A stretch of 64,000 nucleotides of DNA, from NCBI GenBank assembly GCA_033581555.1, contig JAVQSZ010000002.1, positions 70,065 through 134,064 of the forward strand, in the 5' to 3' direction. Positions 6,831 to 63,516 of this stretch are shown one piece after another; the stretch's first letter is position 1; each line of letters opens with the position of its first letter. The position numbers and the translations under genes are program-made. The notes beneath the pieces are model-generated. The model was not told the origin of the DNA and did no database searches. It worked only from the letters and a program-made list of their open reading frames with translations. Origin of the DNA: Nitrososphaerota archaeon. GTDB taxonomy: Archaea > Thermoproteota > Nitrososphaeria_A > Caldarchaeales > Calditenuaceae.

Positions 6831-7529
6831 GTGAGGGGCCATGACCCCGGGACCGCGGCCTGGACAAACCGATATCTCTCGGGGCTTGTGGGAAAGGGGA
6901 GCATGGAGCAGGTCCAGGGGAGGCTGCCTCCAGGTCAGAGGTACGTCCGGGACTTCATCGTCTACGCGGCGCTGGGGATACCGAGGGTCGACCTGAACAG
7001 CTACAGGCTCTCGGTGACTGGTCTCGTCGAGAGGCCGCTCTCGTTCACCTACGAGGAGCTGCTCAGGATGCCGATGAAGAAGTACGTCAGGGACGCCCAC
7101 TGCGTTACCAAGTGGTCGGTGAAGGACGTCGAGTGGGAGGGAGTTCAGATCAGGTACCTCGCCGAGCTCGCCGGCGTCAAGCCCGAGGCCAGGTGGGTGA
7201 TGTTCAGGTGCCTAGACGGCTACTCGGCCCCCGTGCCGGTAGAGGACGCGCTGGACGAGTACTCTATCGTCGCTTTAAGGATCAACGGGAGGCCCATACC
7301 CCTCGAGAACGGGTTCCCCGCGAGGCCCTTCATCCCCCACCTCTACCTCTGGAAGAGCGCGAAGTGGTTGAACGAGATCGAGTTCATCGAGGAGTATGAG
7401 GACGGGTTCTGGGAGAGGCCAGAGAACGGCGGCTACCATGAGCGGGGGAACGTCTGGCAGGAGGAGAGGTTCAAGGACGCGGGCGGGTTCCACTCGAGGA
7501 GGAGGCCGATCAGGCCGAAGGGTTTCTGA
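6831..7529 (+). CDS. Sulfite-oxidase-family molybdopterin-binding oxidoreductase (YedY/MsrP-like catalytic domain)
   Basis: 232 aa. Conserved Mo-ligand region [18 protein letters not shown] and [16 protein letters not shown]. The true start may be the internal Met at 6903 (MEQVQ...). Confidence 0.7.
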
Positions 7530-25181: not shown

Positions 25182-26311
25182 ATCGCTCTGCTGAGTTTCC
25201 TTGCGATTCTCAGACTTCTCCTCTGAAGCATGTACAAATTGAAATCCTTGTCGCCTCTGTTAGGAAGTTTGTTCGTGTCCATCAACACCCAACGCATGAA
25301 CTCCCTGTCAACCGTGTATACGAACTCCTCATAAGGCTTGAGACCGTGTATGACCTCATAGAGGAGAACAGAATATCTGATCGCTGCGGCCCTCTCGGAG
25401 CCGCTGTTAGTCGCGTCCAGCGCCACCTCGAGGAGCCCATGGAAGTCGTCCGCCACCCCGTTACCGTCTATGATACCGCATCTTCTCAGCTCTGCGTAGG
25501 TCCGATCGAGTCTCATGGTCATCGAAGTGAAGATCGATGCTGGTGCGCTCCCCCCGGGCTCTCTAATCGCGTATACGGATACGCTCGTCGAGCGCATGAG
25601 GCTCGCCATCAGTAGGTGGAGTGCCGACTCGGGGAAGAGTCCCGCCAAACGTCCCTTTCTCTTACCTACATAAGTGCTTAGGTCCTTGTAGCCGGTTTGA
25701 TGCGAAATAATGCGCTCCGCGTTGATGGTGAAGCCCCTCTCCGTCGAGGACGTCAGCGGGGTCACCACGACCGTAACGTAGTCGTTCACTCCTACCAACG
25801 TCCTGCCTACCGCGCATCCGAGGTAACCGCATAACGCGAGCGCTATCGAAGATAATGGGTATTTTTTGCTTTTAATGAGGCCAGCCGTAGAATAGCCTGG
25901 AACCCTGTTGTGTTCATAGAACTCAGGCTTGAGTATTTCTATCAGTCTAAAATTTTCATTCGAGGACACGACGGAACGCAAATTGTCCTTCACCAGCTTC
26001 AAGAAAGAAAGGGCGTCTATCCCTTCATCTCGCTTTCCGAGTTCTCGCAATATCTCTACCATCACTTTCTTATCGTTCCCACTCATCGGCAGCCTGAGAG
26101 AGACCCCCTTACTCACCGATGCTTGCTTCTCTTCCAGAAGTTGTTCCACTGCTTCTAATGCGTTTTCTAAGGCCTTTACAGGTCTAGGACCGTCTACGAT
26201 TATTTCCGTAGGCGTTACGGTTATTCTGTACGCAGGGTCTAAATGGAACAATAATCCGAGTAGACAATCAGTAGCGAATTTGGGGAGAAGCTTTATTGTA
26301 AGCGTAGGCAC
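25178..26311 (-). CDS. cas8a: Cas8a-like large subunit candidate (Cas8a2/Csa4-type) of type I-A Cascade
   Basis: 377 aa with no clear motif. Assigned from its canonical position between cas3'' and cas6 in I-A cassettes and from its size; overlaps both flanking genes by 4 and 1 nt. Confidence 0.4.
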   Translation of the reverse strand: MPTLTIKLLPKFATDCLLGLLFHLDPAYRITVTPTEIIVDGPRPVKALENALEAVEQLLEEKQASVSKGVSLRLPMSGNDKKVMVEILRELGKRDEGIDALSFLKLVKDNLRSVVSSNENFRLIEILKPEFYEHNRVPGYSTAGLIKSKKYPLSSIALALCGYLGCAVGRTLVGVNDYVTVVVTPLTSSTERGFTINAERIISHQTGYKDLSTYVGKRKGRLAGLFPESALHLLMASLMRSTSVSVYAIREPGGSAPASIFTSMTMRLDRTYAELRRCGIIDGNGVADDFHGLLEVALDATNSGSERAAAIRYSVLLYEVIHGLKPYEEFVYTVDREFMRWVLMDTNKLPNRGDKDFNLYMLQRRSLRIARKLSRAI

Positions 26312-27129
26312 TAAACTTCACCTCCTAATGCGCTCTTCAGCTCCTCGATGAATTGAGTACGACTAGATGTCGATTCGTCGCTCCGCCTGCTCTCGGAAGC
26401 ATCTAGGTTGTCTCCTATCAATATCGGTAAGAGAATCAAAACATACCCCTTCAGCTTCTTTCTCCTGGTAGAATCTTCTTCAAAATTCGATATGCTTTTC
26501 ATCAGCTCTACGACTTCCTCAAAAGATATCTTCTCAGCTAGCGCTTCGTGAACGTGATAGGTCTCTATCCCCGTTCGTCTAGATATGTAATCGGACAAGT
26601 TGGAGAGATATTCTCTCTTGATATATCCACCGGTTTTTATCAAGTGGATAAACTTGTCGCGAATTTCTCTGTGCTCGCCGCTAAGATAAGTCACATCGAA
26701 CGTGAAAGCCTCTTTGAAGTTATCGAAAGTCCTACCCATGGCGTGCAGATGATCCAAAACAGCGAGAACAGTCAAGTGTGTGAGATCGCTCTTCTCTCCT
26801 AAACTGTCAAAAACTCTCTTAAGGTATACAGCTGAAAACACCTCATGTAGGTAGAAGCCAGACGCCCTTCCCTCTATAGGGGTGCAATCGTCTTCGTAAT
26901 TGACTTGGTATGCTTCGATAGCCTTTCCTACGTCATGAAACACGCCGGCGATCATAATACTCTGCTTGATCTCCTCGGGCGAGGTCCCTATACCTAAGAC
27001 TCTGAGGCGTCCCGAAACAGTCTCGTGGTAGCCGTTATCGATTATCTTCTCAACATATTTCAGGACTCCTTCGGTGTGTCGTATCAGCGATTGACCTCTA
27101 TAAGCACACGGCTTGCAGTCGGTCACCAC
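26311..27129 (-). CDS. cas3'': Cas3'' HD nuclease domain protein (split Cas3, type I-A)
   Basis: 272 aa. HD-domain metal motifs H..(GVFHDVGK) and downstream His (DHLHAMG); a standalone HD gene immediately after a DExH helicase gene. Confidence 0.75.
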   Translation of the reverse strand: MVTDCKPCAYRGQSLIRHTEGVLKYVEKIIDNGYHETVSGRLRVLGIGTSPEEIKQSIMIAGVFHDVGKAIEAYQVNYEDDCTPIEGRASGFYLHEVFSAVYLKRVFDSLGEKSDLTHLTVLAVLDHLHAMGRTFDNFKEAFTFDVTYLSGEHREIRDKFIHLIKTGGYIKREYLSNLSDYISRRTGIETYHVHEALAEKISFEEVVELMKSISNFEEDSTRRKKLKGYVLILLPILIGDNLDASESRRSDESTSSRTQFIEELKSALGGEV

Positions 27130-28796
27130 TGCATACCTACCTCCTCATCATAGCCTTCTAAAATTACCGCTGCTATGTTATTCATCACGAATTGCTTCGA
27201 TAGGCAGTCCGCTCTCGATGACAGTCTGATGTCTTTACGCCGCACAATTTCCTTTGACTCGGTGACGAACTCCTTGATCCGCTCGGAGTCGAACAGCCTC
27301 CAAAATTCTTCGTCTCCTATCGTGAATATTAGATTAATTCGCTCCTGAGGGTTCTTTACGAAGGTATCCGCGTATGCTCTGGGAACGACCGGAATCATCT
27401 CTCCCTCACGAACGAACCCACAATAAGCCTCCCACACTTTTACAGCAACCCTTGCAGAGAGGGATGGATAAAAGTCCACCAGCCTCAGCTGATAGAGCAG
27501 GCTCCTGTCTACGAGCCGGGTTTCAACGTAATCGTCATAAACCTCGAGTAGTGCGGTAGACAACTCTCTCATCCCCAGGAGCTTTCGAAGGGTCTTCTCA
27601 ACCAGCTCTTCGGCGTACACACTCTTTCCGCCCTCGCTCAGTGGATATATGAGCACCTTACCAGATCCGCCTTTCCTCGCTACTCTACCGGCCCTCTGAA
27701 TGAGCGAGTCTGGTGGAGCGGCCTCGGTTATCAGAGCGTCGAAGCTCATGTCTACGCCCGCTTCAAAAATCTGTGTGGCTACAACAACGCACGGCCCTCT
27801 CTCTACTTCGGAAAGCCTCCGTCTTCTCTCGGCCTCAATCATCTTCGCGTGAAGTATTACAGGCTTGATCCCTTCCTTCTGCAAGGACCTGTAAATCTCA
27901 ATCGCGTTTCTTACCGTATTGGCGATAACTAATACGCGGCTGAACCTCCTCGCGGCTTCAACTATCTGACTTAATTTATCCTCTTCTCCCACTATTTCTA
28001 CATCGATCTGTCTTTTAACAAATCCAAGATCAGATTGTGAAGGCATTATCTCTTTTATGAGTGAATCCTCTAACACTCTTTCGACCTCTTCTTTTATTTT
28101 GTTTTTAATTAGTTGAGGCATCGTCGCTGTAGATATTATAACGGGAACTCCCATTTCTAGTAAGCCTATTATGCTTGTAATCGCAGAAGTTAACATTTTG
28201 CTTCGCCCATTCACAATAGAATTCGAGCTTACAAAGAGGTGAAATTCATCGAAGACTACTGTCGCGGAGTAAATGCAGCCCCTAGGCACCTCATAGTGAG
28301 CGTAGCCCTTAGTAAAGAGTTTCTTTAATTCTACCGGAGGGATCTTATATAATGAAGAGACGAACGTATCGAGGGTTGTGATGACGAACCTCTTACATAA
28401 CATAGGACTTCCCGGAGAGCTCATCTGTTGAAGGCCTACTTCATCCCCAGCCAGTGGAAGCCCGGTTTCACTCAATCTCCCCACATAATCCCGCATCCTC
28501 TTCAGCATGTGTGTCCCTATCGAGCGCATAGGTAGGACGTGTATCACCCTCTGCCCTAAGTCAGCCCTCCCTTGTTTAATTGCGGCGTAAATGGTGAGAG
28601 AGAGGGTACTCTTGCCGTAGCCCGTTGGGGCCTCAAGAAAGATAAGAGTCCTCGACTCCTCTCTTACCCCCTCTTCAAGGGCTGAGAGGGTCTTTTCTAA
28701 CAAGGGCCTCGCGTCTCCGTTGAAGAGTTTGCGGCTGATGTCCTGATAGACCTCACTCAAAGACTGCGAGCCCATCATCCCCCACCCTGTAAGCAT
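27123..28796 (-). CDS. cas3': Cas3' DExH helicase (split Cas3, type I-A)
   Basis: 557 aa. Walker A EAPTGYGKST, DExH box VVFDEFH, motif VI QRAGRVARKG. The start may be a slightly internal Met, since the ORF overlaps cas5 by 44 nt. Confidence 0.8.
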   Translation of the reverse strand: MLTGWGMMGSQSLSEVYQDISRKLFNGDARPLLEKTLSALEEGVREESRTLIFLEAPTGYGKSTLSLTIYAAIKQGRADLGQRVIHVLPMRSIGTHMLKRMRDYVGRLSETGLPLAGDEVGLQQMSSPGSPMLCKRFVITTLDTFVSSLYKIPPVELKKLFTKGYAHYEVPRGCIYSATVVFDEFHLFVSSNSIVNGRSKMLTSAITSIIGLLEMGVPVIISTATMPQLIKNKIKEEVERVLEDSLIKEIMPSQSDLGFVKRQIDVEIVGEEDKLSQIVEAARRFSRVLVIANTVRNAIEIYRSLQKEGIKPVILHAKMIEAERRRRLSEVERGPCVVVATQIFEAGVDMSFDALITEAAPPDSLIQRAGRVARKGGSGKVLIYPLSEGGKSVYAEELVEKTLRKLLGMRELSTALLEVYDDYVETRLVDRSLLYQLRLVDFYPSLSARVAVKVWEAYCGFVREGEMIPVVPRAYADTFVKNPQERINLIFTIGDEEFWRLFDSERIKEFVTESKEIVRRKDIRLSSRADCLSKQFVMNNIAAVILEGYDEEVGMQW

Positions 28797-29586
28797 CGTG
28801 CCTCTCAGCCAACTTGATCCTCATCCAGCAGCTCGAGACCGGGTCCCTACTGCCCGGGATGATGTATTCTTCCGTCTCAGGCTCACCGACCCATCGGTAG
28901 TCAAGCGCCCAGAAGGACTCCGTATAAACACCTGATAGGGCGTACGGTCCGCCTCCGTATTCTAAGACGTCTTCCACCAGCCTCTTAGGGTGGTAGAAAC
29001 GGGTTCTATACTCCCGTCCGATCATTACGGCCTTCCTGAGGTCTGCCTGCTCGACCGAGACGATGCCCTCTTTTGAGCCGAGAGCTGTAATCGAGTTAGC
29101 CGCCACGAGTAGCTTGTGCTCCCAGTCTTTCCCGAGCTTCTCCTCAGCTAGCTCCTCCTTGACGAGCAGGCCTAACGTTAACAATCCCGAGGGCATGTAG
29201 ATTTTACCCGTGGGAACGACGTTGAACCTGTACAGTGGGTCCCCCCGCCTACTGGGCCTCTGGAACTGCAGGATTTGATATCTCACTATGTCCTCCCAGT
29301 ATTTTCCGACGCGTTTCTCTCCGCCTTCCTCTTCCACGAAGAACGCAGATGCCGAAGCGAAGATGTCCTTATAGAGTTCTGCGCTCGATCCAATCACCGC
29401 CTTCCCCATCTGTGATACGGTGATAAGTTCTCCTGTCTTGCCCATCACGCACAATGGCTTTGATATCGCTCCGATGATCGTTGTTGGTGGGGGAGGTGAG
29501 GAGTAGGCGTGCTGGACTTTCGATACTAGGGGGGTCTTGACGCTGAAACCCCAACATAGTCTGAGATCGATCGTCAAGCTCATCAT
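28753..29586 (-). CDS. cas5: Cas5 (Cas5a, type I-A)
   Basis: 277 aa. N-terminal Cas5 signature ...AYSSPPPPTTIIGAISKPL (PPP[ST]TI[IV]G), glycine-rich loop. Confidence 0.75.
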   Translation of the reverse strand: MMSLTIDLRLCWGFSVKTPLVSKVQHAYSSPPPPTTIIGAISKPLCVMGKTGELITVSQMGKAVIGSSAELYKDIFASASAFFVEEEGGEKRVGKYWEDIVRYQILQFQRPSRRGDPLYRFNVVPTGKIYMPSGLLTLGLLVKEELAEEKLGKDWEHKLLVAANSITALGSKEGIVSVEQADLRKAVMIGREYRTRFYHPKRLVEDVLEYGGGPYALSGVYTESFWALDYRWVGEPETEEYIIPGSRDPVSSCWMRIKLAERHDAYRVGDDGLAVFE

Positions 29587-29596
29587 GGTTGATCTA

Positions 29597-30619
29597 CTAT
29601 TTGCCTTGTGTGACCAGATTCATGATGTCTTCGAAAACGTCCTCGAGCGTTTCGTGTTTTGAGACGCCGGCGGGGACGCTCAACCCCTCTCTATTCACGC
29701 ACCATACTTTGACTTCATGACCTGTTAGCGCCAAGTACTTCTGCGCCCTCTTCCACGTCCTCTCAACGTAGTCGGTGTAGTTCCCTGGAGAGACAGTGAA
29801 GGAGTCACGAGATAGCGCGAGCACGGAAGACCTAAGCTCGATGTTGGGGAAGAACCTCGACCTCTTCCCGCCATAGGAGTTGTTGGTAAGCAGCTTCAGG
29901 AGCGCGATCAGAGCGGCCTTTCTCCTATTGGGGATCGAATTGCTTAGTTCTTGTTTTTTCTTCTCCAATTCATCGCGCGCTCCCTTTGGAGTTTCCCCGA
30001 AAACGTTAGATGGTACGCCGATTCCTGCTAAGTCGAGGTTTAGGTTAAGCGTGTATACAGAAGAGGCTATCTCGACGTTATACGGGATCTGACCGAGTTT
30101 GGCGTCTTTCCCAGCCTGCGAGAACAGGTAGCGAACGTGAAACTCAGCCTCCATCGCGGTGGCGTTAAGCACGTCCTGGATAGCTGGGATCATGTATCCG
30201 ACCTGAAAGCGGGATGTTCGTTTAACTGGGATATCACCAGTGTAAAGGAACCCGCCTACGTCGGCTACAATGTCTTTCAATAGAACGTCTATTTCGAACC
30301 TCATGATGTCCTCGTGGCTCTTCGGCGGCTTGACACCCTCTTCCGTAAGATAGCTGTCCTCAGAGAACTTGATGAACTCGTTTCTGGATGAGAATACGCC
30401 TACAGGCAATTTCATAGATTTCGCTACGTCGACTAACAGAGCCTGATATCCGTGGGCTATTGATTCTCCGGAGACTGCTGGCACGTATTTCAGGGTGTAG
30501 CCGTCGTGCTGTGGGATCACCATCGGTACAGTTCGATGCCTCGACAGGTTGCCGACGGTCTCGACCGAGTTGAGGGCCTCGACGTTCATCAAGCACCTCA
30601 AGGATATGCTGAGGAACAC
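29597..30619 (-). CDS. cas7: Cas7 (Csa2) backbone subunit, type I-A
   Basis: 340 aa. N-terminal MNVEALNSVETVGNLSRHR and overall RAMP pattern typical of Csa2. Confidence 0.75.
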   Translation of the reverse strand: MFLSISLRCLMNVEALNSVETVGNLSRHRTVPMVIPQHDGYTLKYVPAVSGESIAHGYQALLVDVAKSMKLPVGVFSSRNEFIKFSEDSYLTEEGVKPPKSHEDIMRFEIDVLLKDIVADVGGFLYTGDIPVKRTSRFQVGYMIPAIQDVLNATAMEAEFHVRYLFSQAGKDAKLGQIPYNVEIASSVYTLNLNLDLAGIGVPSNVFGETPKGARDELEKKKQELSNSIPNRRKAALIALLKLLTNNSYGGKRSRFFPNIELRSSVLALSRDSFTVSPGNYTDYVERTWKRAQKYLALTGHEVKVWCVNREGLSVPAGVSKHETLEDVFEDIMNLVTQGK

Positions 30620-30620
30620 C

Positions 30621-31067
30621 TCACTTCACCTCGCCCTGTTGAGCCGAAGGGGCTCTCAATCTCGACTCCACCAGTATCGCCGAGGCATACGCACCGATCT
30701 TCCTGGCAAGCGATGTATCGCTCTGAACCTTATCGATGAATTCCCTAACCATCTCGCTGCTGGGGAGGTGTCCCACGATCTGAAAGACACCGATTTCGTC
30801 CTGCACCTCGACGACCCGATACTCCCGCCCAGTGGTCGTTGTCTTAGTGCCAACCCTAAGTCTCCGTTCACTCTCGGATCGCGCTAGCTCGCTGTCTACG
30901 AGCCTCAGCGAGTCCCGTATAGTTCGAACCGCGGGCTCGGGGTTTAGCGCGTTAGCCATCCTGTCGATCATCGAGGGCGAACCGCTCAGAGCAGCAGCTG
31001 TAGCCAGGAGGACAGCGATCGGTCTGAACCCTTCTAGATCATGTTGAGGAGACTTACTCCCTGTCAT
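30621..31067 (-). CDS. csa5: Csa5 (Cas11 small subunit, type I-A)
   Basis: ORF track 30621..31130. The first 21 codons lie in AT-rich promoter-like DNA and would overlap csa3. The internal Met at 31067 gives a 148 aa alpha-helical protein, typical Csa5 size, immediately upstream of cas7. Confidence 0.6.
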   Translation of the reverse strand: MTGSKSPQHDLEGFRPIAVLLATAAALSGSPSMIDRMANALNPEPAVRTIRDSLRLVDSELARSESERRLRVGTKTTTTGREYRVVEVQDEIGVFQIVGHLPSSEMVREFIDKVQSDTSLARKIGAYASAILVESRLRAPSAQQGEVK

Positions 31068-31119
31068 GCGAGCCAAAAATATACAAGATGGTATATAAGA
31101 TTTATTCACCCGGAAAGGA
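31068..31119. promoter_or_regulatory. Divergent csa5/csa3 promoter region with a shared symmetric TATATA element
   Basis: AT-rich 52 nt spacer gagccaaaaatatacaagatggtatataagatttattcacccggaaaggA. TATATAAG at 31093-31100 lies 20-27 nt upstream of the csa3 ATG (31120). On the other strand it lies about 26-31 nt upstream of the csa5 ATG (31067). Both spacings suit leaderless archaeal transcripts. Confidence 0.4.
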
Positions 31120-31839
31120 ATGCATTCCATCTACTTGAAACAGATAAAAGCCTTATTACGGCTTAGTGAAACCATAGAGTCGATGATTTTAGCGGTCACG
31201 CTGGGCTTCGACGAGAAGTTCGCGGTCAGGGCCGTCATTCGGCACTCACACTCACGGCTGACCCGCATCGTGGTGATAACGCCTGCGCTTAGGGCGGATG
31301 AACGCACGGAGGCGGCGATTGGATCTCTGAGGGAGTTCCTGAGGAGATACCTCCAGATCGAGGACGTCGAGAGGGTTGAGGTGAGCGTGGACGACTGTTT
31401 CGACGCCGTCGGCGAACTCGTTGGAATGTTCGACTCGTGGGCAGGAGACGCCGTGACCCTCAACTTAAGCGGCGGAATGAGGCTCCTCGTGATCGAGTGT
31501 CTGATCGGCGCGCTGATGAGCAGGACACTTATGACCATCGAACTGGAGAGCGAAGACGGTTCGGCTTACTTTAGTTTCGGGAACGATTACTTCGATCCAG
31601 CCGTTTTCAACGAAATCGACCATATAGACAAACTGATTCTGAAATATCTAACTAACAAATGTTCCGCGTCTTCGTTGTCGAAGTTGTTGGATCTCCCCAA
31701 GTCTTCTGCTTGGAGGAGGGTAAGGAAACTTGAGAGGCTCGGGCTCGTCGAGGTGGAAAGGGTGGGCAGGTCTCTTGCGGTGAGGCCTACCGACAAAGGA
31801 AGAGTGCTGAGAAGCATCATGCGCGACCTACACCGCTAA
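31120..31839 (+). CDS. csa3: Csa3: CARF-domain + winged-HTH CRISPR-associated transcriptional regulator
   Basis: 239 aa. N-terminal Rossmann-like CARF (ILAVTLGFDEKFAVRAV, VVITPA, VTLNLSGGMRLLVIECL). C-terminal wHTH (LILKYLTNK...LSKLLDLPKSSAWRRVRKLERLGLVE). The alternative start at Met22 is 31183. Confidence 0.7.
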   Translation: MHSIYLKQIKALLRLSETIESMILAVTLGFDEKFAVRAVIRHSHSRLTRIVVITPALRADERTEAAIGSLREFLRRYLQIEDVERVEVSVDDCFDAVGELVGMFDSWAGDAVTLNLSGGMRLLVIECLIGALMSRTLMTIELESEDGSAYFSFGNDYFDPAVFNEIDHIDKLILKYLTNKCSASSLSKLLDLPKSSAWRRVRKLERLGLVEVERVGRSLAVRPTDKGRVLRSIMRDLHR

Positions 31840-31866: not shown

Positions 31867-32286
31867 TCAATCGAGTTTCTGGACGACGTCGTGAACGATG
31901 ACGTTGGTCTTGTCGCCGATGCGCGTTATAGTGGCCTTAGCGATGAAGGCACTCCCGCGTTTGATCAGACCCACAGGGCCGTAGTAGTTAGTGGATTCGA
32001 GCCTTGCCATGAACCGGTCGTTGACCTTTACCACCGCGAACCCCTTGTAAACACGCTCCACCTCGACCTTTAGGAGCCTCCCTCCAGCGAACCTCGACCT
32101 CACCGCGGACGATGCGACGTACCTGCCCCTCACTTTCACCACCCTCCTCGACCTCATTAAGCCCCTGAGGACTGACCGGGCCCTAGAGGGCTCGAGTTCG
32201 AGCTCCTGCGCGACGTCCTCCAGCGTCATCCCTGCCCTGCCTGCGGTCAGGAGAAGCATGTACACCTCCTTCGTAAGGGAGGTCAT
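31867..32286 (-). CDS. Hypothetical protein: N-terminal winged-helix + C-terminal beta-rich domain
   Basis: 139 aa. MarR-like wHTH (VYMLLLTAGRAGMTLEDVAQELELEPSRARSVLRGLMRS). The C-terminal ~70 aa is predicted beta-rich (LLKVEVERVYKGFAVVKVNDRF...). Lower-GC codon usage like the cas genes. Confidence 0.45.
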   Translation of the reverse strand: MTSLTKEVYMLLLTAGRAGMTLEDVAQELELEPSRARSVLRGLMRSRRVVKVRGRYVASSAVRSRFAGGRLLKVEVERVYKGFAVVKVNDRFMARLESTNYYGPVGLIKRGSAFIAKATITRIGDKTNVIVHDVVQKLD

Positions 32287-32415
32287 CTCTCAACAAGTGG
32301 ACTAGTCGTTAAAATAGGTCTACTTCGTCCGGATTTACCGAATGCAACTTTAGAAGACGTATGGAATGTTTTACTATATCCTTACTGGAATAATATGTCT
32401 CAACATATAAGCCAT

Positions 32416-33315
32416 CTACTTTTTTAGGACTACGGAACTTTTTCCATCCCTGTGCTCAGGAGTATCATTGATCAGAACACGGTAGCCACGACGGGATGTC
32501 GTCTGTACTGGTAATTTGTCTTTATCCAACCGTTTAGTTTCAAGCAACCACTCTGCACATCTGGTCAATATATCTTTCCACACTCTAATTTCATACTCCT
32601 TACCGTCAGGGAATCTTATCGACTTGTAACGTAACGGTTCTCCTTTCTTGGGTTTAAGTTCACTTAGCGGTAGACCTTTCCTGTCACGATAAGGAGGCGC
32701 AATTACGGTAGGAGGAGGACTGCCTATGCCGGCGTACCTCATTATCGAAAAGGCGTTCCTGATGACTTCGCCCGGCTCCATCTTCCTTATGTCCCATTCT
32801 GCGATCTTCTTTTCATGCAGAGGCTTCTGCACTTGGGTGTCATAGACCTCCCACTTCGCCCCATCGGTCGCGATGAAGTATCTCACTCCCTCCGACACGC
32901 AGTATGACACCTGCTGAATCAAGTCCTCCTCCTTCCCCAGGCTCTTAGCACCTATGAACGCGATCCTCTGGCCGTTCAGCAGAAGCGCGTAGTCAGGTCT
33001 TCCGGCCTGAGTGGAGACTTCGGGTATGACGAGGTTCGGGTCTTCGGTGTCCCAACCTAGCGCCCTCAGGAAGGGGTCGATGAGCACGTACCTTGTCAGG
33101 GTCTCGCTTTTCTGTAACATGTCACGGTGACTTTCGATTTTCATTCTAAGCTGCCTGACGAGATCAACGAGTCCTTCAAGCGCCACAATCCTAATTTTAA
33201 AATCATAAATATATACTTTATGGGAAATAATTTGTAGGACCGACTGTCGATGTGCGAAACCTAAGTTTACGCTCCTCAATTGAGGCTGCTTTACCGCTAC
33301 GCGACCCTCCAACAT
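32416..33315 (-). CDS. HsdR_N-like (type I restriction enzyme R N-terminal / Mrr-like PD-(D/E)xK) domain protein with uncharacterised C-terminal domain
   Basis: HsdR_N pattern SETLTRYVLIDPFLRALGW...GRPDYALLL...IAFIGAKSLGKEE...GVRYFIATDGAKWEVYD. The C-terminal ~110 aa is K/R-rich and unknown. Start uncertain: Met1 at 33315 would overlap the hef 3' end by ~100 nt; the internal Met at 33144 gives 243 aa. Low-GC island codon usage. Confidence 0.5.
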   Translation of the reverse strand: MLEGRVAVKQPQLRSVNLGFAHRQSVLQIISHKVYIYDFKIRIVALEGLVDLVRQLRMKIESHRDMLQKSETLTRYVLIDPFLRALGWDTEDPNLVIPEVSTQAGRPDYALLLNGQRIAFIGAKSLGKEEDLIQQVSYCVSEGVRYFIATDGAKWEVYDTQVQKPLHEKKIAEWDIRKMEPGEVIRNAFSIMRYAGIGSPPPTVIAPPYRDRKGLPLSELKPKKGEPLRYKSIRFPDGKEYEIRVWKDILTRCAEWLLETKRLDKDKLPVQTTSRRGYRVLINDTPEHRDGKSSVVLKK

Positions 33316-36469: not shown

Positions 36470-36889
36470 ATGTCGACCACTTACGAGGTGCCCAGCGGGC
36501 TGAGCTACTCTAGGAACCACGAGTGGGTCAGGCAGAAGGGCAAGTACGCGGTGATCGGGGTCACGGACTACGTCCAGAAGAAGCTGCGGGAGATACTCTA
36601 CGTGGAGCTCCCGAACATCAACACCAAGCTCACCAGAGGCCAGCACCTCGCGACGATCGAGTCGGTCGGGGGGAGCCACGAGGTGAGGGCCCCGGTCAGC
36701 GGGAAGATAGTTGAGGTGAACGCGAGGCTCATCGACAGCCCCGAGCTGATCAACGAGTACCCCTACGAGGACGGTTGGATCTGCAGGATGGAGGTCTCGG
36801 ACCCGACGGAGCTAGAGGACCTGATGCAGCCCGACGAGTACACTAGATACATCGAGGAGCTTGAGCTGGAGGCTAGCGAGACCGAGTGA
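36470..36889 (+). CDS. gcvH: Glycine cleavage system H protein family member lacking the canonical lipoyl-lysine
   Basis: 139 aa. Classic GcvH pattern (YSRNHEWVR..., AVIGVTDYVQKKL, DPYEDGWI). The lipoylation motif is ESVGGSHEV instead of ESVKA, with Gly in place of the Lys. Confidence 0.7.
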   Translation: MSTTYEVPSGLSYSRNHEWVRQKGKYAVIGVTDYVQKKLREILYVELPNINTKLTRGQHLATIESVGGSHEVRAPVSGKIVEVNARLIDSPELINEYPYEDGWICRMEVSDPTELEDLMQPDEYTRYIEELELEASETE

Positions 36890-44329: not shown

Positions 44330-44518
44330 TTGAGCCCGAAGGCCCTGGTGCTGCTGACGGCTGCGGTCGTCACCGTCCTCTCGCTGCTCGGGACCTTCCT
44401 CTACGGCGTCGTTGCGGGCCTCAGGGTAGCCCTCCGGTTCCTCCTGCCCCTGTTGGTGATCGCTGTGGCCCTGATGCTCCTGGTCGCGCTCCTCTCGAGG
44501 CCGAGGGAGGAGGACTAG
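44330..44518 (+). CDS. Possible small membrane protein (62 aa, two TM)
   Basis: Short hydrophobic ORF in the tiaS-ychF intergenic region; no supporting motif. Confidence 0.25.
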   Translation: MSPKALVLLTAAVVTVLSLLGTFLYGVVAGLRVALRFLLPLLVIAVALMLLVALLSRPREED

Positions 44519-45804
44519 ACCGCGCAGGCGTCTGACCCGCTAGATGCCTGCAGCCAGAGAGGCCTGACCAGGTGCCGCCTCGCCGAGACCGCGACCTCGT
44601 AGACCCCCTCCCTGACCTCCCTCTCGACCCTCACCCTGACCTTCGTCGCGTTAGGGTCGACCCTGCCGCAACCCTTGCACCTGTATCCCTTCCCGGAGCC
44701 CACGGACTTCATCGCCCTCCCGCAGTCCTGACACCTAGGAGCGCGCTCCGCGTACACATCCCTCAGCCTGATGACCTCGAGCTTCTCGAGGTTCAGCGTG
44801 AGGCCCTCCGGCTTCGGCTTGACGGCGCCGTAGACCGCGACCTCGTCCCCGACCTCGAGCCTCTCCACGACCCTCCTGAACTCACCAGTCGGCTCGTAGG
44901 CCGCGACCGTGATCTCGCCGGTCCCGTCAGAGACCTCCAGCAGGACGTGCCCTCCTGGGATGACCCTGGGCCTCCCCGCGACTAGGCCCCTCACGACGAC
45001 TGACTCGAGGGGCCTGACCGACTGGACCTGCCGCTCGACGTAGTGGATGTCGGTTGCCTGGTTAGTCCTGTAGACCTCGAAGAACTCGATCGGCTCGTTG
45101 ACCCTCAGCAGGGTGAGCGCGCCAGTGAGGACGTCAGCGCGAACCGACCTGATCCCGAGGAGGACCGGACACGGCGTGTGGGGCGTGACCCTGACTTCGC
45201 CCTTCTCGTAGTCGTAGTTGTCGAAGGTGACGCCGCGGTAGGCCCTGTCCATCTCCTTCACCGACTCGGGGTCGACCAGCCTCTCCTTCCCCCACATCTC
45301 CCTGGTCCGGTAGGCTAGAAGCTCGAACGTCGAGAGGGTCTCCTTCACCGCCCCCGCGGCCGCCGTCGCACCGATCAACCCCCTCATCTCGCCGTAGCCC
45401 CAGTGCGCGATCGCAAAAGTCCGGACGAGCTCCATCGCCTCCTCGAGCTCAACGATCTCCCTGACCGCCCTGAAGTAAAACCGCCGGAGCCCGGGCCTAG
45501 CGTCCTCCCCGAACGCCACGACCCCAGGGTCGGCCCCGCTCTCCAGGTCCGCGAGCTCCTCAACAGTCTCGATAACGGCCCTCCAGACGTCCCCGAACAC
45601 GGAAGGGTCGACCTCGAGGGGCAGGCAGACGGCCGCGTTCCCCCTCGTCTTGTAGGGGCAGTTCGGGTTGAGCCTGACCAGCCAAGGGTGGTCCAGCCTC
45701 CTCGCCCCGAGGGACTCGGCCCTCCTCAGCGCCACCGCTCCGACGTAGGTCGTGCACATCGACCTCTTGGAGTCGGTGTCGTCGATCCCGACGTAGACCC
45801 TCAC
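44515..45804 (-). CDS. tiaS: tRNA(Ile2) 2-agmatinylcytidine synthetase
   Basis: 429 aa. N-terminal MRVYVGIDDTDSKRSMCTTY...LNPNCPYKTRGNAAV is highly diagnostic for TiaS. C-terminal Zn ribbon CQDCG...CKGCG. Confidence 0.85.
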   Translation of the reverse strand: MRVYVGIDDTDSKRSMCTTYVGAVALRRAESLGARRLDHPWLVRLNPNCPYKTRGNAAVCLPLEVDPSVFGDVWRAVIETVEELADLESGADPGVVAFGEDARPGLRRFYFRAVREIVELEEAMELVRTFAIAHWGYGEMRGLIGATAAAGAVKETLSTFELLAYRTREMWGKERLVDPESVKEMDRAYRGVTFDNYDYEKGEVRVTPHTPCPVLLGIRSVRADVLTGALTLLRVNEPIEFFEVYRTNQATDIHYVERQVQSVRPLESVVVRGLVAGRPRVIPGGHVLLEVSDGTGEITVAAYEPTGEFRRVVERLEVGDEVAVYGAVKPKPEGLTLNLEKLEVIRLRDVYAERAPRCQDCGRAMKSVGSGKGYRCKGCGRVDPNATKVRVRVEREVREGVYEVAVSARRHLVRPLWLQASSGSDACAV

Positions 45805-45919
45805 TCCCGAACCTGAGTCCGCCGGCCCGAATTTCAGCCTTCACAGGTCGACGGCTACCCGCTTTCGGCGAGGACCTGCACGGCTTAAAGCGAGCTTCCG
45901 GCCGTGAGGTCAGGAGCGG

Positions 45920-46609
45920 ATGAGCGTCCCGGAGAAGCAGGAGGTGCTGGTCGTGAACGGCTGCGCTCTGCCGAGGATGGCCCTCTACGACCTCGAGAAC
46001 GAGAGCTGGTACCTCGAGGAGGACGACGTCATCAGGGTTGGGGTGCTCCCCACCACGCAGACGAAGTGGGGCAAAGTTACCTCCGTGAGGCCCAAGACCC
46101 CAGGGACCGTCGTTGAGGAGGGGAGGTCGCTGGCGTTCGTCGAGGCTAAGAAGTTCGTGGGACGCGTCAACGCGAGGTTCAAGGTCGAGGTCTTGGAGGC
46201 GAACCGAGAGCTCCTCGAGGTCCCGCACCTCTGCCAGTCCGATCCCTACGGACGTGGATGGATCGTCGAGGTTAGGCCGCTCGAGGCAGGGTACAGGGAG
46301 AGGCTCAGGACGTTCGACGAGGCAGCGGACGTCCTCCGCGAGGAGATCAGGAGCAGGGGGATCATGTGCTTCAGGGAGGTCCCGGACGTCGTGATGGCGG
46401 CCCTGGGGGTCGAGTGCAGCCAGGCGCTGCTAGTCCTGGCCGACGCGATAAGGCATGTCCCTCCGGGGCAGGTGATCCACTTGGTCGCTGAGGCCGACGA
46501 GAACGCTGAGCGGGAGGTCAGGGCCTGGGCGAGGGTCACCGGCAACGAGCTCCTCGAGTTCGCGCTGGAGGGCAGGCTGGCTCACGCGTTGATCAAGAGG
46601 CGTGGGTGA
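45920..46609 (+). CDS. Fusion protein: GcvH-like lipoyl-domain fold (Lys retained) + TusA/SirA-like C-terminal domain
   Basis: 229 aa. The N-terminal ~125 aa follows the GcvH pattern (FVEAKKFVGRVNARFKVEVLEAN..., SDPYGRGWIVEV). The C-terminal ~90 aa resembles the TusA two-layer fold (GIMCFREVPDVVMAAL...LVAEADENAEREVRAWARVTGNEL) but with C-x4-P instead of CPxP. Confidence 0.4.
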   Translation: MSVPEKQEVLVVNGCALPRMALYDLENESWYLEEDDVIRVGVLPTTQTKWGKVTSVRPKTPGTVVEEGRSLAFVEAKKFVGRVNARFKVEVLEANRELLEVPHLCQSDPYGRGWIVEVRPLEAGYRERLRTFDEAADVLREEIRSRGIMCFREVPDVVMAALGVECSQALLVLADAIRHVPPGQVIHLVAEADENAEREVRAWARVTGNELLEFALEGRLAHALIKRRG

Positions 46610-46635
46610 GTCCCTTTCATTAGGGACCGAACGCG

Positions 46636-47562
46636 GTGATCTCTCGGATGGGCGCGGCGGTCGAGTCGGAGGACCTCTGGAAGACCTACGACGGCCAGAA
46701 CTGGGTCCTGAAGGGCGCGACCCTCACGGTCAACGAGGGCGAGGTCTTCGCGCTCCTCGGGAGGAACGGAGCCGGGAAGACGACCTTCATCAGGATAGCC
46801 TGCACGCTCCTCAAGCCCAGCAGGGGGACGGTCAGGGTGCTTGGGCGCGACGTCATCGCGGACGCTGGGTGGATCAGGAGGAGGATCGCGGTGGTGCCGC
46901 AGGAGGGGAGGCCGTCGAACCTCTCGACGCCATGGGCCCACGTCTACTACTACCTGATCGCTAGGGGGATGCCCAGGAGCGAGGCCGCGAGGAGGGCGAG
47001 TGAGTACCTCGAGGCGATGGAGCTTTGGGAGGTCAAGGACGTGATCTGCGGCAACCTCTCAGGAGGGATGAGGCAGAGGGTCTACGTCGCGATGGCGATG
47101 GCGACCGAGGCCGACGTCCTCTTCCTCGACGAGCCAACGATCGGGCTGGACCCCATCTCGAAGACGACGATGTGGTCCCAGATCAGGAGGGCCTCCGAGG
47201 AGGGGAGAACCGTCATAGTCACCACCCACAACATGGAGGAGGCCGAGACGATCTCCGACAGGGTCTCGATCATCAACGCCGGGAGGATCGTCGTGACCGG
47301 GAGCGTCGAGGAGGTGATGAGTGCCGTCGAGTACGATTACAGGGTCGACGTCGAGGGGATGGCTGACCCGCAGGAGCTCAACGCCTACGGTCCCGTCAGG
47401 CGGATCGGTGACCGGTTTAGGGTCCTAACGACCGCGTCCGGCGCGAGGGAGCTCGCGGAGGTCGCGGTCGAGAGGGGTTGGAGGGTGAACGTCTCCAAGA
47501 CCTCGCTCGAGGACGCCTTCATCTTATTGGCGGGTGGTCACGTTGAGGATGAGGCTCGCTGA
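46636..47562 (+). CDS. ABC transporter ATP-binding protein (ABC-2 associated)
   Basis: 308 aa. Walker A GRNGAGKTT, signature LSGGMRQRV, Walker B LFLDEPTIGLD. Confidence 0.8.
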   Translation: MISRMGAAVESEDLWKTYDGQNWVLKGATLTVNEGEVFALLGRNGAGKTTFIRIACTLLKPSRGTVRVLGRDVIADAGWIRRRIAVVPQEGRPSNLSTPWAHVYYYLIARGMPRSEAARRASEYLEAMELWEVKDVICGNLSGGMRQRVYVAMAMATEADVLFLDEPTIGLDPISKTTMWSQIRRASEEGRTVIVTTHNMEEAETISDRVSIINAGRIVVTGSVEEVMSAVEYDYRVDVEGMADPQELNAYGPVRRIGDRFRVLTTASGARELAEVAVERGWRVNVSKTSLEDAFILLAGGHVEDEAR

Positions 47563-48310
47563 GGGCTTAGTCCACTTCGTGAAGTCGGTTTACGCCTCGA
47601 CGATGCTCTTCGGGGTGATCCCGTTCAAGCAGAACCCACTCTGGTCGCTCTCGCCGATGCTGGCGCCGATGGCCTTCCTCCTCTTCCTCTCGGTCTACGG
47701 GATACGTGAGATCGTGCCTTACGCGCTGATAGGTGGGATGACCTCGATCGTCGTCGCGAACTCGATCACGATGGAGTCGGACGCGGCCTTCAACAGGCTG
47801 ATCCTGAAGATAGAGTCGATGTTCGTCCTAACGAGAGGCGGCCTGATACCCTACGCGGTGGGGTTGGCGCTCGGGAACCTGATCAACGCGCTGCCGGGGA
47901 TGCTGGTCTTCGGGGCGTTACTCTGGACCCTCGCAGGGGTGAACCAGCTCTGGAGCTGGGCGGTGTTCCTAGGAGCGCTGGCGGCGACGTGGGCGATCGT
48001 CTCCATGGTGGGCTACTACATCAGCACGTTCGCACGGGACATCAGGGACCTCTGGGTCTACTCGCCGATCTTCACCGGCGTCTTCTCCTACCTGCCACCG
48101 GTCTTCTACCCGCTCGAGAGGATCCCGTGGACTGAGCTGAAGTATTTCGCGTACGTCTCCCCGACCACCGCGCCCGCGAGGCTGATGCAGGCGGCCGCTG
48201 GCCTCGTGAGTATCACTTGGACCGAAGCCCTCCTCCTCTGGCTGTTGCTCCTGGTCCACGGCTCGATCGTCTTCGTTCTGCTCCACCGCAGGCTAAGGAG
48301 GCCCATCTGA
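47534..48310 (+). CDS. ABC-2 type transporter permease
   Basis: 258 aa, six TM segments; overlaps the upstream ATPase by 29 nt. Confidence 0.7.
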   Translation: MVTLRMRLAEGLVHFVKSVYASTMLFGVIPFKQNPLWSLSPMLAPMAFLLFLSVYGIREIVPYALIGGMTSIVVANSITMESDAAFNRLILKIESMFVLTRGGLIPYAVGLALGNLINALPGMLVFGALLWTLAGVNQLWSWAVFLGALAATWAIVSMVGYYISTFARDIRDLWVYSPIFTGVFSYLPPVFYPLERIPWTELKYFAYVSPTTAPARLMQAAAGLVSITWTEALLLWLLLLVHGSIVFVLLHRRLRRPI

Positions 48311-48355
48311 CAGGTCGGGGCTCACGGTGATAAGAGGGCTCCGCGGAGGGCCGGC

Positions 48356-48823
48356 GTGGAGTTCACCCTTAGGGCGGTCGGCGTCGTGAGGGTCGAGGCC
48401 TCGGAGGAGGAGGTGAGGGAGAGGTCCGGGGAGCTGCGGGGGACCGTAGAAGTCTTCCCGGAGTTCGAGGAGGCCCTCGAGGGGATCGAGGGGTACACGC
48501 ACCTATTCCTGATCGCCTACCTGGACAGGGTCCAGCAGAGGCTGCTCAAGGTCAAGCCGAGGAGGCTCCTCAGGAAGGGCTTCAGGGAGGAGGACCTCCC
48601 GGAGCTCGGGGCCTTCGCGACCGACTCGCCGGTGAGACCGAACCCGATCGCGCTGACCCTCGTCAAGCTGGTGAGGAGGGAGGGGAGGTTCCTCCACGTC
48701 GAGGGCCTCGACCTCTTCGACGGCACGCCGGTGCTCGACATCAAGCCCTACAGGTCCGACTACAGGGCTAGGGAGTTCAGGGTCCCCGAGTGGGTGAAGT
48801 TCAACTCGCGCCCCGAGATCTGA
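48356..48823 (+). CDS. trmO: TsaA/YaeB-family tRNA methyltransferase (TrmO-like)
   Basis: 155 aa. GYTHLFLIAYLDR, SPVRPNPIALTLVKLV and GLDLFDGTPVLDIKPY are hallmarks of the YaeB/TrmO beta-barrel family. Confidence 0.75.
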   Translation: MEFTLRAVGVVRVEASEEEVRERSGELRGTVEVFPEFEEALEGIEGYTHLFLIAYLDRVQQRLLKVKPRRLLRKGFREEDLPELGAFATDSPVRPNPIALTLVKLVRREGRFLHVEGLDLFDGTPVLDIKPYRSDYRAREFRVPEWVKFNSRPEI

Positions 48824-61742: not shown

Positions 61743-62681
61743 TTGGGAGCGGTCATAAGGGTCGAGTCTCTGGTCAAGGAGTACCGGGACGGAGGGAGGG
61801 TTGGGCCTATAACTCTCACCGTGGGTCAGTCGGAGGTCTACGGGCTCGTTGGCCCGAACGGCTCCGGGAAGACTACCACGCTGAGGGCGGTCCTGGGGCT
61901 CCTCAGGCCTACGTCAGGACGCGTCGAGGTCCTCGGCGCCGACCCTTTCGAGGACCCCAAGAGGGTCAACTCCCGCGTCGGTTACTCCCCGGAGCTCCCG
62001 ACCTTCCCGGCCTTCTTCACCGCAAGGAAGCTGCTCGAGGTGACCTGCAGGCTGAAGGGCATGAGCCTCCAGGAGACGAAGAGGGAGGTCGAGAGGGTGC
62101 TCGACCTGACCGGGCTGGTCAGGCACGCCGACAGGAGGGTCGCTGGCTTCTCGAAGGGGATGATACAGAGGCTCTCAATCGGCCAGGCCCTCGTCGGCGA
62201 CCCGGATCTCCTGATCCTCGACGAGCCGATGCTCGGGGTCGACCCGGTCGGGAGGGTCCACATCAGGGAAGTCCTGCAGGAGGAGAGGAGGCAGGGCAAG
62301 ACGATCGTCTTCTCCTCCCACGAGCTGTACGAGGTCGAGAGGGTCTCCGACAGGGTTGCGATGGTCTACATGGGGAGGACCGTGCTCGAGGGGTCGGTCG
62401 CGGACCTGCTGAGACCGAGCGAGGACGTCGTCCTCGAGGTCAGGGTGAAGAGGCCGCCGGCCGACGGCGTGAGGAACGCCATTCTGAGGACTGAAGGGGT
62501 GAGGTCGCTGGAGATCGACGGCCAGGCCCTGAGGGTCGTATTCGATGGGTCGAGGGACCCGAGGGAGGAGATCGCGGACCTGCTGGTCAGGTCGGGTTGC
62601 GGGCTGCTCGAGATGAGGACGGCCCCGCCTTCGCTCGAGGACGTCTTCGTCAAGGTGGTCAGGGATGGCGTCCACTCTTAG
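61743..62681 (+). CDS. ABC transporter ATP-binding protein (ABC-2 associated)
   Basis: 312 aa. Walker A GPNGSGKTTT, signature FSKGMIQRLSIGQAL, Walker B LILDEPMLGVD. Confidence 0.8.
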   Translation: MGAVIRVESLVKEYRDGGRVGPITLTVGQSEVYGLVGPNGSGKTTTLRAVLGLLRPTSGRVEVLGADPFEDPKRVNSRVGYSPELPTFPAFFTARKLLEVTCRLKGMSLQETKREVERVLDLTGLVRHADRRVAGFSKGMIQRLSIGQALVGDPDLLILDEPMLGVDPVGRVHIREVLQEERRQGKTIVFSSHELYEVERVSDRVAMVYMGRTVLEGSVADLLRPSEDVVLEVRVKRPPADGVRNAILRTEGVRSLEIDGQALRVVFDGSRDPREEIADLLVRSGCGLLEMRTAPPSLEDVFVKVVRDGVHS

Positions 62682-63516
62682 GGCCCTGACGGTGCTCGTC
62701 GAGTACGAGTTATTGCGCAGTTTAGCGAGGCGCCGCGTGCTCCTCCTGCTGACAGCGACCCTGCTCCTCGAGGTCGCGATCTACTTCGTCCTCACGAGGC
62801 TCCCGCCCCTCTTCGTGAACCCGATAAGGCAGTATGCGTGGTCGGTCGGGCTGATCGCGCCCTCCACGGCCCTCCTTCACGTCCTCGCGATCACGATCGG
62901 CGCCTCGGCGTCCTCGGAGGAGTACGAGACCGGCACGGCGGACTTCTGGTTCACGAGGCCGATCTCGAGGCTCGAGTATTTCGCGGGCAAGACGCTGGGA
63001 GGCCTGCTACTCCTCGGGTCCATCATAGCCCTATACTCTTCGTTGGCCCTGGTCCTGTCCTGGTACGCCTTCGGCCCTCAGTCGAGGCTCGACGCCCTCG
63101 TCCTGGGCATCGCGGCCTCTCTCGCCTCCGCGGCGCCCTCGTTCGCGCTGGGCGTGGCGCTCGGCGAGCTGACCAGGAGGAGCATGATCGCGATACTCCT
63201 CGGCGGAATCCTCTTCTTCGGGTCGGTGCTGTTCCAGAGCTACGCGAACGTCGTCGCGGTCCTCAACAATGACAGGTCGCTCCTCGAGATCGCCTCCTAC
63301 CTTCCCAGCTGGGGCGCGGTGGGCTACACGGTCACCGTGGTCTCTGAACTCCTGAACCTGCGCGGCTTCGCGGCAAGCTTCTTCGCGGCCGCTTCCGGGC
63401 TCACGCTCGTTGACGTCGGGAGGGCCCACCTCAGCATCCTCGCGTACTCGGTCGCGCCCTTCCTCGCGGCCTGGTTCAGGCTCAGGTACGGCGACGTCAC
63501 GAGGCGGTCTGCCTGA
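62665..63516 (+). CDS. ABC-2 type transporter permease
   Basis: 283 aa, six TM segments; overlaps the upstream ATPase by 17 nt. Confidence 0.65.
   Translation: MASTLRALTVLVEYELLRSLARRRVLLLLTATLLLEVAIYFVLTRLPPLFVNPIRQYAWSVGLIAPSTALLHVLAITIGASASSEEYETGTADFWFTRPISRLEYFAGKTLGGLLLLGSIIALYSSLALVLSWYAFGPQSRLDALVLGIAASLASAAPSFALGVALGELTRRSMIAILLGGILFFGSVLFQSYANVVAVLNNDRSLLEIASYLPSWGAVGYTVTVVSELLNLRGFAASFFAAASGLTLVDVGRAHLSILAYSVAPFLAAWFRLRYGDVTRRSA

Follow-up and report, generated by a model that had tools for sequence, protein, structure and literature searches.

An LbpA-like/TusA-like fusion protein of archaea and the rhodanese and ABC-2 transporter genes beside it

The fusion gene and its product

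We analysed a stretch of 64,000 nucleotides (64 kb, 62% G+C; hereafter the window) of contig JAVQSZ010000002.1 from a Nitrososphaerota archaeon of the Caldarchaeales, which carries at positions 45920-46609 (+) an open reading frame (ORF) of 229 amino acids coding for an LbpA-like module with GcvH fold fused to a TusA-like domain. The LbpA-type module occupies residues 1-152 (45920-46375, +; located by Foldseek, BLASTP and HMM comparison) and the TusA-fold domain residues 154-227 (46379-46600, +; located by phmmer to E. coli TusA 3lvj/1dcj and by Foldseek to 3lvj_C). Four codons, all on the + strand and placed by alignment, are central to what follows: those of C15, the N-terminal LbpA-signature cysteine in NGCxLP, which is also marked by its conservation in the family (45962-45964); of K78, the residue at the lipoylation position in VEAKK (46151-46153); of C150, a linker cysteine in GIxCFxEVPD equivalent to the C-terminal LbpA-signature cysteine (46367-46369); and of C166, the equivalent of the persulfide-carrying Cys19 of TusA, which stands in CSQA and not in CPxP (46415-46417). 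The G+C content at third codon positions (GC3) of the gene, 0.89, is typical for real genes of the window. As the initial annotation of this DNA had described, the gene lies between tiaS (44515-45804, −), its upstream flank, and an exporter gene pair (46636-48310, +) for an ATP-binding cassette (ABC) ATPase and an ABC-2 type permease.

The same annotation had proposed a single polypeptide uniting a GcvH fold with a TusA fold, and Pfam, AlphaFold2 and Foldseek agree on this. Pfam GCV_H matched residues 23-141 with an E-value of 9.6e-21 and 74.4 bits (cut-off 22.2), and Pfam TusA matched residues 162-226 with an E-value of 2.2e-6 and 27.9 bits, or 29.0 bits for the C-terminal half alone, the cut-off of 28.6 falling between the two values. 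In a phmmer comparison with PDB sequences, the fusion matched GcvH 1onl (4e-15) and E. coli TusA 3lvj/1dcj (2e-3). An AlphaFold2 model based on ten homologues had a predicted local distance difference test score (pLDDT) of 93, with values above 90 across the linker, and a predicted template modelling score (pTM) of 0.85, which suggests that the two domains are held in a fixed arrangement. Foldseek against the PDB placed the N-terminal half on GcvH 1onl (E 7e-13, target TM-score (TMt) 0.90, root-mean-square deviation (rmsd) 1.8 Å) and the C-terminal half on TusA 3lvj_C (E 6e-5, TMt 0.81, rmsd 2.0 Å); the C-domain also matched YeeD of the YeeE-YeeD complex (8j4c, 8k1r). Examined separately, both halves thus have the folds first assigned to them, the C-terminal one being TusA-like by Foldseek and the N-terminal one lying over the Pfam GCV_H cut-off. 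The GcvH-type module is longer than the about 125 residues initially given and spans about 150, C-terminal helix included.

A first homology search returned ten clusters, all from metagenome-assembled genomes (MAGs) of Caldarchaeales (Aigarchaeota). With an exhaustive profile-based search and a second search by words added, the family comprised 114 full-length two-domain members, and the distribution that had been left to be determined proved to be archaeal in all named lineages (Aigarchaeota/Caldarchaeales, Bathyarchaeia, other Thermoproteota and Thermoplasmata). A protein from a Caldarchaeales MAG (P0001, 'Thaumarchaeota archaeon') is 100% identical to the fusion, and 11 Caldarchaeales genomes of a one-genome-per-species collection have it as a single ORF. 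A metagenome scan with the member P0017 returned mostly ordinary GcvH genes by way of the word KDPYGKGW, and only two loci in it, L029 and L030, carried true fusions. Since there are 114 full-length homologues and a single ORF in 11 Caldarchaeales genomes, the fusion is neither an assembly nor a frameshift artefact. Some members are auto-annotated in IMG as 'glycine cleavage system H lipoate-binding protein/TusA-related sulfurtransferase', so that the architecture is visible in databases, yet we found no paper that describes a GcvH/LbpA-TusA fusion in a literature search from whose scope most subscription-journal papers fell.

An LbpA-type module, three conserved cysteines and a variable lipoylation position

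LbpA proteins are recognized by a strictly conserved lysine together with N- and C-terminal cysteines, both of which are missing from GcvH (Cao et al., 2018, PMC6067878). Judged by sequence comparison, the N-module of the fusion belongs to this type and not to generic GcvH, with which it shares the fold. BLASTP aligned the fusion with an LbpA encoded in an shdr cluster (P0237) at 35% identity over 144 amino acids, C15 corresponding to C7, K78 to K68 and C150 to C143, and with the stand-alone GcvH of the window at only 25% identity over 115 amino acids. The P0237 locus encodes CCG-domain, ferredoxin-like and FAD subunits, a GCV_H protein, DsrE, two LplA-B ligases, a second GCV_H protein, two TusA proteins and further DsrE proteins. 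Among 1.8 billion representative proteins searched with the family profile, the top stand-alone matches were proteins of 145-160 amino acids with an N-terminal cysteine in GC-x-[FV]-P-[ED], a lysine in ESGKW and one or two cysteines directly past the C-terminal helix. These closest stand-alone relatives of the N-module, P0237 among them, came from known sHdr-type sulfur oxidizers, namely Hydrogenivirga and other Aquificota, Acidiferrobacter and Hydrogenisulfobacillus.

Two hidden Markov models (HMMs) were made from the matches of the representative search, one from LbpA-signature proteins and the other from cysteine-less GcvH proteins. The N-module of the window fusion scored 122 bits with the first and 115 bits with the second, a preference of 7 bits; across the family the N-modules favoured the LbpA-signature model by a mean of 12 bits, the difference being positive in 102 of 110, whereas for the stand-alone GcvH of the window the GcvH model came out ahead by 55 bits. 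As evidence these scores are modest, and the stronger argument is the cysteine signature, a cysteine in GC-x-[FL]-P near the N-terminus and one just past the C-terminal helix, which the fusion (C15 and C150) has in common with LbpA.

If the fusion were simply a glycine-cleavage H protein that had gained a C-terminal extension by chance, this would agree with the Pfam GCV_H score well over its cut-off, with the fold (a TMt of about 0.9 with 1onl, 1htp and 3a7l) and with the label 'glycine cleavage system H protein' that sources give to some relatives. We regard this reading as effectively refuted already, to the point of being highly improbable. The fusion stays below the equivalog level of the NCBIfam GcvH models TIGR00527 and NF002270, falling far short with 44.7 bits (cut-off 115.85) and 74.2 bits (cut-off 117), and it carries two extra conserved cysteines; in addition, family members do not consistently keep the lysine, a TusA fold whose cysteine never varies is conserved in the C-domain, and no glycine-cleavage gene context was found, neither gcvT nor gcvP adjoining the gene. 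A stand-alone GcvH of canonical type is encoded elsewhere in the window (36470-36889, +; 139 amino acids, Pfam GCV_H 130 bits, E 4e-34 to the pea H-protein), also with neither gcvT nor gcvP adjoining. It has a glycine at the lipoyl-lysine position (atiESVGgshev versus gavESVKatsdv) and therefore cannot be lipoylated.

In the C-terminal domain, alignment with E. coli TusA placed C166 (alGveCsqall) on Cys19 (alGlrCpepvm) and P155-D156 on the SPD ahead of TusA strand 1, so that C150 lies upstream of the TusA domain, in the linker. The initial annotation had taken MCFREVP, which contains C150, for the replacement of the CPxP motif; the absence of CPxP held, whereas the assignment of the site did not, since it is C166 (GVECSQAL) that aligns with Cys19. 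At this site the window copy has CSQA and the family the pattern C-[SA]-x-[VIA], with S (52), A (32) or P (12) directly after the cysteine among the 114 members and V (55), I (24), A (13) or P (8) at the third position after it. The domain therefore resembles TusA/YhhP (E. coli, 3lvj, 1dcj; PF01206) in its two-layer alpha/beta fold, in the cysteine at the N-terminus of helix 1 and in a DDP-type motif present in most family members according to the consensus, but differs in the loss of CPxP, in the conserved cysteine-bearing linker ahead of it and in its covalent bond to an LbpA-like module.

Conservation was quantified across the family, changes being counted as the minimum on a neighbour-joining (NJ) tree of 81 non-redundant sequences (<90% identity). 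C166 is a cysteine in all 111 members with a residue there (0 changes), C15 in 107 of 113 (2 changes) and C150 in 104 of 110 (1 change). One lineage alone lacks C15; there C150 is gone too (D and F instead) and the TusA site is a canonical CPGP. At position 78 we counted R in 65, K in 40 and T, V or S in 5 members (n = 110), and the tree requires 16 changes or more. These counts indicate strong purifying selection on C15, C150 and C166, and none of this kind on lysine 78. The initial annotation was right that the window copy has a lysine at the lipoylation position, because in alignments the last residue of VEAKK, K78, falls on the lysine that carries lipoate in T. thermophilus GcvH (1onl) and in LbpA, and K78 forms with E75 a canonical E-x-x-K hairpin, a feature shared with LbpA. 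E75-x-x-K78 is kept in the window copy, P0002 and P0003, whereas P0004, with 65% identity and from the same clade and gene neighbourhood, reads VEAKR. The tip of the hairpin evidently calls for a basic residue, but not for lysine and hence not for lipoate. Because of the R, K and other residues at position 78 and the repeated switches between them, lipoylation does not appear to be a property of the fusion family, and the idea of a lipoyl carrier put forward at the outset was not supported.

The fusion might nevertheless be a genuine lipoylated LbpA joined to its TusA donor, serving an sHdr-type oxidation of sulfane sulfur encoded elsewhere in the genome. E75 and K78 in their hairpin, the nearness of the N-module to the LbpA proteins of shdr clusters and the interaction of TusA with LbpA in Aquifex are in its favour, but we consider it unlikely. 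The lipoate-attachment lysine is kept in 95 of 95 LbpAs (PMC6067878), whereas most fusion members, same-clade P0004 included, have arginine, and the stand-alone GcvH of the window also is without the lysine. Moreover, no homologue of shdr, dsrE, lplA or lipS turned up in the window when it was searched by tblastn with a complete shdr cluster as query and about 45 of its genes were scanned with Pfam, and none was found within 5-8 kb of those related loci whose neighbours were listed by Pfam family. L029 and L030 were compared with the proteins of one shdr cluster only, and nothing but the expected match of LbpA to the fusion was obtained. The loci of the 11 Caldarchaeales species were checked for neighbour types already seen, among which shdr, dsrE, lplA and lipS do not figure. 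Of the link to sHdr-type sulfur trafficking suggested initially, what stands is the resemblance of the N-module, most LbpA-like and with both signature cysteines; the genes that accompany lbpA, namely shdr and dedicated lipoate-assembly genes (sLpl(AB), LipS1/S2), were missing from the loci so covered, and in their place, as a further difference from LbpA, a rhodanese or an ABC-2 transporter is encoded. The window has just one other possibly sulfur-related gene (6831-7529, +), some 39 kb away from that of the fusion; it codes for a 232-amino acid protein with a molybdopterin-binding domain of the sulfite oxidase family (Oxidored_molyb, E 2e-41).

Gene neighbourhoods and promoter-like elements

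The fusion gene was found in eight contexts. In Caldarchaeales clade A (the window, P0003 and others), it follows a tiaS gene on the opposite strand and is succeeded in its own direction by the ABC ATPase, ABC-2 permease and trmO genes. In clade B, a hemerythrin gene lies upstream on the opposite strand, and the ABC ATPase and ABC-2 genes follow the fusion, the gap to the ATPase gene being only 6 nt. Clade C, with 6 of the 11 species genomes, has the order rhodanese, fusion, SIS, all in one direction. Thermoplasmata with fusions of 238-242 amino acids have, downstream and on the opposite strand, genes for a rhodanese, SUI1, two ABC-2 proteins and an ABC ATPase, and an opposing rhodanese gene likewise follows the fusion in the P0046/P0230 group, in L029 (P0017 group, Thermoproteota) and in L030. 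Finally, Thermoplasmata fusions of 221 amino acids stand between pirin and glyoxalase genes of the same direction.

Several smaller features of these loci were recorded. In one clade C genome (L024, 5648-8648), about 3 kb are inserted between the fusion and SIS genes, which are directly next to each other in the other five. The clade B hemerythrin-domain genes, divergent from the fusion, lie at 7303-7878 of L001, 7333-7893 of L007 and 4327-4890 of L020 (all −), and their products weakly resemble the di-iron protein RIC/YtfE of iron-sulfur (Fe-S) repair (34 bits, cut-off 205). In the 221-amino acid group (L009, L015), the fusion overlaps the 3' end of pirin by 4-11 nt, genes for MOSC-domain, RidA-like and GCV_T proteins lie nearby on the other strand, and neither a rhodanese nor an ABC-2 gene is near; this context is unlike all the others. 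Compared over window positions 44515-48823 with L018, L019 and L027, the fusion diverges faster than its syntenic neighbours, having 65% identity to its L019 counterpart versus 82% for the ABC ATPase, 76% for the permease and 79% for TrmO, and 86% to its L018 counterpart versus 92-93% for the neighbours.

A rhodanese gene immediately adjoins the fusion in 5 of the 8 contexts (clade C, the 238-242-amino acid Thermoplasmata, P0046/P0230, L029 and L030). These partners are orthologous two-domain proteins with a CRIGERS active site and 60-69% identity between lineages. An active site of the form CRxGx[R/T] marks rhodaneses of the thiosulfate sulfurtransferase (TST) type (PMC11094781), and by this motif the partner is assigned to the TST type.

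The ABC-2 linkage was found in 3 of the 8 contexts, the window included. The ATPase beside the window fusion (46636-47562, +; Pfam ABC_tran E 6.5e-30) is DrrA/NodI-like, scoring 233 bits with the NCBIfam drrA subfamily model, under its cut-off, and likely starts at the ATG at 46648; it has a C-terminal extension at about residues 235-308. The permease gene (47534-48310, +) codes for an ABC-2 type protein with no cysteine (Pfam ABC2_membrane E 5e-6, 26.6 bits, cut-off 26.9), and trmO lies downstream of the pair. The order fusion, ABC ATPase, ABC-2 is present in 5 of the 11 Caldarchaeales species genomes, with the permease alongside the ATPase in all of them, and in two clades with unlike upstream flanks. 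In Thermoplasmata, orthologous ABC genes are located at a distance of 1.5 kb from the fusion: their ATPase is 45.6% identical to the fusion-adjacent ATPase of the window (234 bits), the other three window ATPases giving 152, 114 and 74 bits, and their permeases are 32% identical to the fusion-adjacent permease (E 1e-19), the only window permease well matched. Because these Thermoplasmata proteins match the fusion-adjacent pair best, the ABC linkage involves orthologous transporters in two phyla. Collectively, the real recurrent partners of the fusion are the two-domain rhodanese and the ABC-2 transporter.

The window contains four ABC ATPase/permease pairs, at 7551-9022 (−), 17144-19314 (−), 46636-48310 (+) and 61743-63516 (+), so that any single ABC adjacency weighs less. 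The first pair adjoins a phosphonate-type binding protein, and in three of the four the permease was scanned as or resembles ABC-2, the Pfam scan having been made on the fusion-adjacent one only.

Two promoter-like boxes were located near the fusion gene. A GGCTTAAA box at 45882-45889 (+), about 30 nt 5' of the fusion ATG, is the sole invariant block in an alignment of the upstream intergenic regions of four Caldarchaeales loci, and a CTTTCATTA box at 46614-46622 (+), about 25 nt 5' of the ATPase ATG at 46648, is invariant in five loci amid varying flanking bases. Both look like archaeal TATA-type elements of leaderless or short-leader transcripts. We infer that GGCTTAAA is a TATA-like promoter element of the fusion gene, and CTTTCATTA possibly is a separate promoter for the ABC genes; the GTG at 46636 listed as start of the ATPase gene is probably wrong. 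Past the fusion stop, the inverted repeat GTCCCT..AGGGAC was considered as a hairpin or terminator and rejected, its arms being without covariation in relatives; the central TTTCATTA of the repeat is invariant, and a TATA-like box therefore fits better than a hairpin.

The neighbourhood also allows the fusion to be viewed as an accessory cytoplasmic part of the adjacent ABC-2 exporter, either a chaperone that would load sulfur species or a sensor of sulfane sulfur or redox state that would gate the ATPase, much as the TusA-like YeeD works together with the thiosulfate transporter YeeE; this partly overlaps with the relay that we propose below. The gene order in 5 of 11 species genomes, the narrow gap in clade B, the orthologous ABC genes near the Thermoplasmata fusion and the Foldseek match to YeeD would all fit such a role. 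In the YeeE(TsuA)-YeeD(TsuB) thiosulfate uptake pair, too, the gene of a TusA-like protein is coupled to that of a membrane transporter, but the transporter of the fusion is ATP-driven and of the ABC-2 type and the coupling holds in part of the family only. With 5 of the 8 contexts devoid of ABC genes in the flanks, such transporters common in the window, a conserved TATA-like box ahead of the ATPase gene, a permease without cysteine and an ATPase of a generic DrrA/NodI-like group, we hold this role to be doubtful.

A supply of sulfur for biosynthesis (tRNA thiolation, molybdenum cofactor or Fe-S repair), as by E. coli TusA, and not for dissimilation or export, would suit the tRNA-modification genes tiaS and trmO beside the window fusion, the MOSC-domain gene near the Thermoplasmata 221-amino acid group, the RIC/YtfE-like hemerythrin divergently upstream in clade B, itself a weak resemblance, and the widespread, housekeeping-like character of the partner rhodanese family. 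None of the tiaS, trmO, MOSC and hemerythrin neighbours recurs across lineages, however, and the RIC-like match is far under its cut-off. The reactions of the tiaS and trmO families require no sulfur. We judge this explanation to be improbable.

A candidate cysteine persulfide relay

The reading that we prefer is that of a rhodanese-fed, largely lipoate-independent cysteine persulfide relay, to which we assign a probability of roughly 0.5, its transfer steps, the direction of flow and the acceptor all being inferred. The fusion would be a cytoplasmic protein-persulfide carrier uniting two modules, LbpA-type and TusA-type, that are separate in sHdr sulfur oxidizers. In a first step, a sulfurtransferase would put sulfane sulfur on C166, the recurrent candidate being the two-domain CRIGERS rhodanese; this step is suggested by the rhodanese-TusA sulfur exchange demonstrated in Hyphomicrobium (PMC11094781), a partnership documented for TusA that the fusion would share. 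The sulfur would then shift intramolecularly to the LbpA-type cysteine pair, of which C150 lies in the rigid linker and C15 on the N-terminal strand, a transfer proposed because co-purification of TusA with LbpA has been reported from Aquifex (PMC11094781). From C150/C15 it would pass onward to some acceptor, which in this organism may be the ABC-2 system. Since the three cysteines are kept and the lipoate-attachment lysine is not, sulfur would most likely be passed from cysteine to cysteine and not on a lipoate arm. The hairpin residue at position 78, the lipoate carrier in GcvH and LbpA, seems to need mere basic character (K or R) in the fusion family, and the relay would therefore be lipoate-independent in most members and probably in the window copy too. 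The carrier may give sulfur to the ABC-2 ATPase/permease pair directly downstream or take sulfur from it, an exchange considered possible because the pair is linked to the fusion in Thermoplasmata as well.

Several observations weigh against such a relay. By tblastn and Pfam scans, no rhodanese is encoded in the window; the rhodanese family is huge and widespread (at least 7985 matches), and some of the adjacency could be fortuitous. With CSQA in place of CPxP, persulfide chemistry at C166 is assumed. The window copy and its two closest relatives retain K78, and the window copy itself may be lipoylated. The ABC genes may have a promoter of their own, and their permease is devoid of cysteine; the Thermoplasmata 221-amino acid group, with pirin upstream, has neither a rhodanese nor an ABC-2 neighbour.

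A bolder and distinctly tentative version, to which we give little weight, would have the fusion represent a previously undescribed lipoate-independent LbpA-type carrier of several archaeal lineages, in which the C15/C150 dithiol would replace the proposed dihydrolipoamide acceptor, receive persulfide from its own TusA domain fed by the CRIGERS rhodanese, and deliver it to the ABC-2 exporter in Caldarchaeales and Thermoplasmata. If this were true, the fusion would be a cytoplasmic sulfur chaperone for the ATP-driven export of sulfane-sulfur species.

TusA and LbpA are known to act together in sulfur oxidation by sHdr, but how sulfur passes between them, and what the two strictly conserved cysteines of LbpA do, are open questions in the field (Cao et al., 2018; Tanabe et al., 2024). 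Their fusion in nature constitutes 'Rosetta-stone' evidence that the two act directly on each other and offers a single small protein in which their sulfur hand-over could be studied, and cysteines kept while the lysine freely becomes arginine argue for a lipoate-independent function of the former. The fusion joins two known partners, has shed the cofactor site and has changed its genomic company, and it embodies no new principle. Its link to a rhodanese or an ABC-2 transporter, and not to sHdr, suggests a route for sulfur trafficking used by thermophilic and soil archaea; a module of rhodanese, carrier and ABC-2 transporter was not mentioned in the literature on Caldarchaeales genomes and metabolism that we searched.

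Apart from the fusion locus, the window contains at 24285-31839 a block of genes with low GC3 (0.53-0.69, versus about 0.9 elsewhere). No CRISPR array was found in the unannotated gap at 32200-33300 beside its cas genes. The block encodes type I-A-like Cas proteins (Cas6, Cas3 helicase, Csa2/DevR (Cas7), Csa5 and the Csa3 regulator) and probably is a horizontally acquired island.

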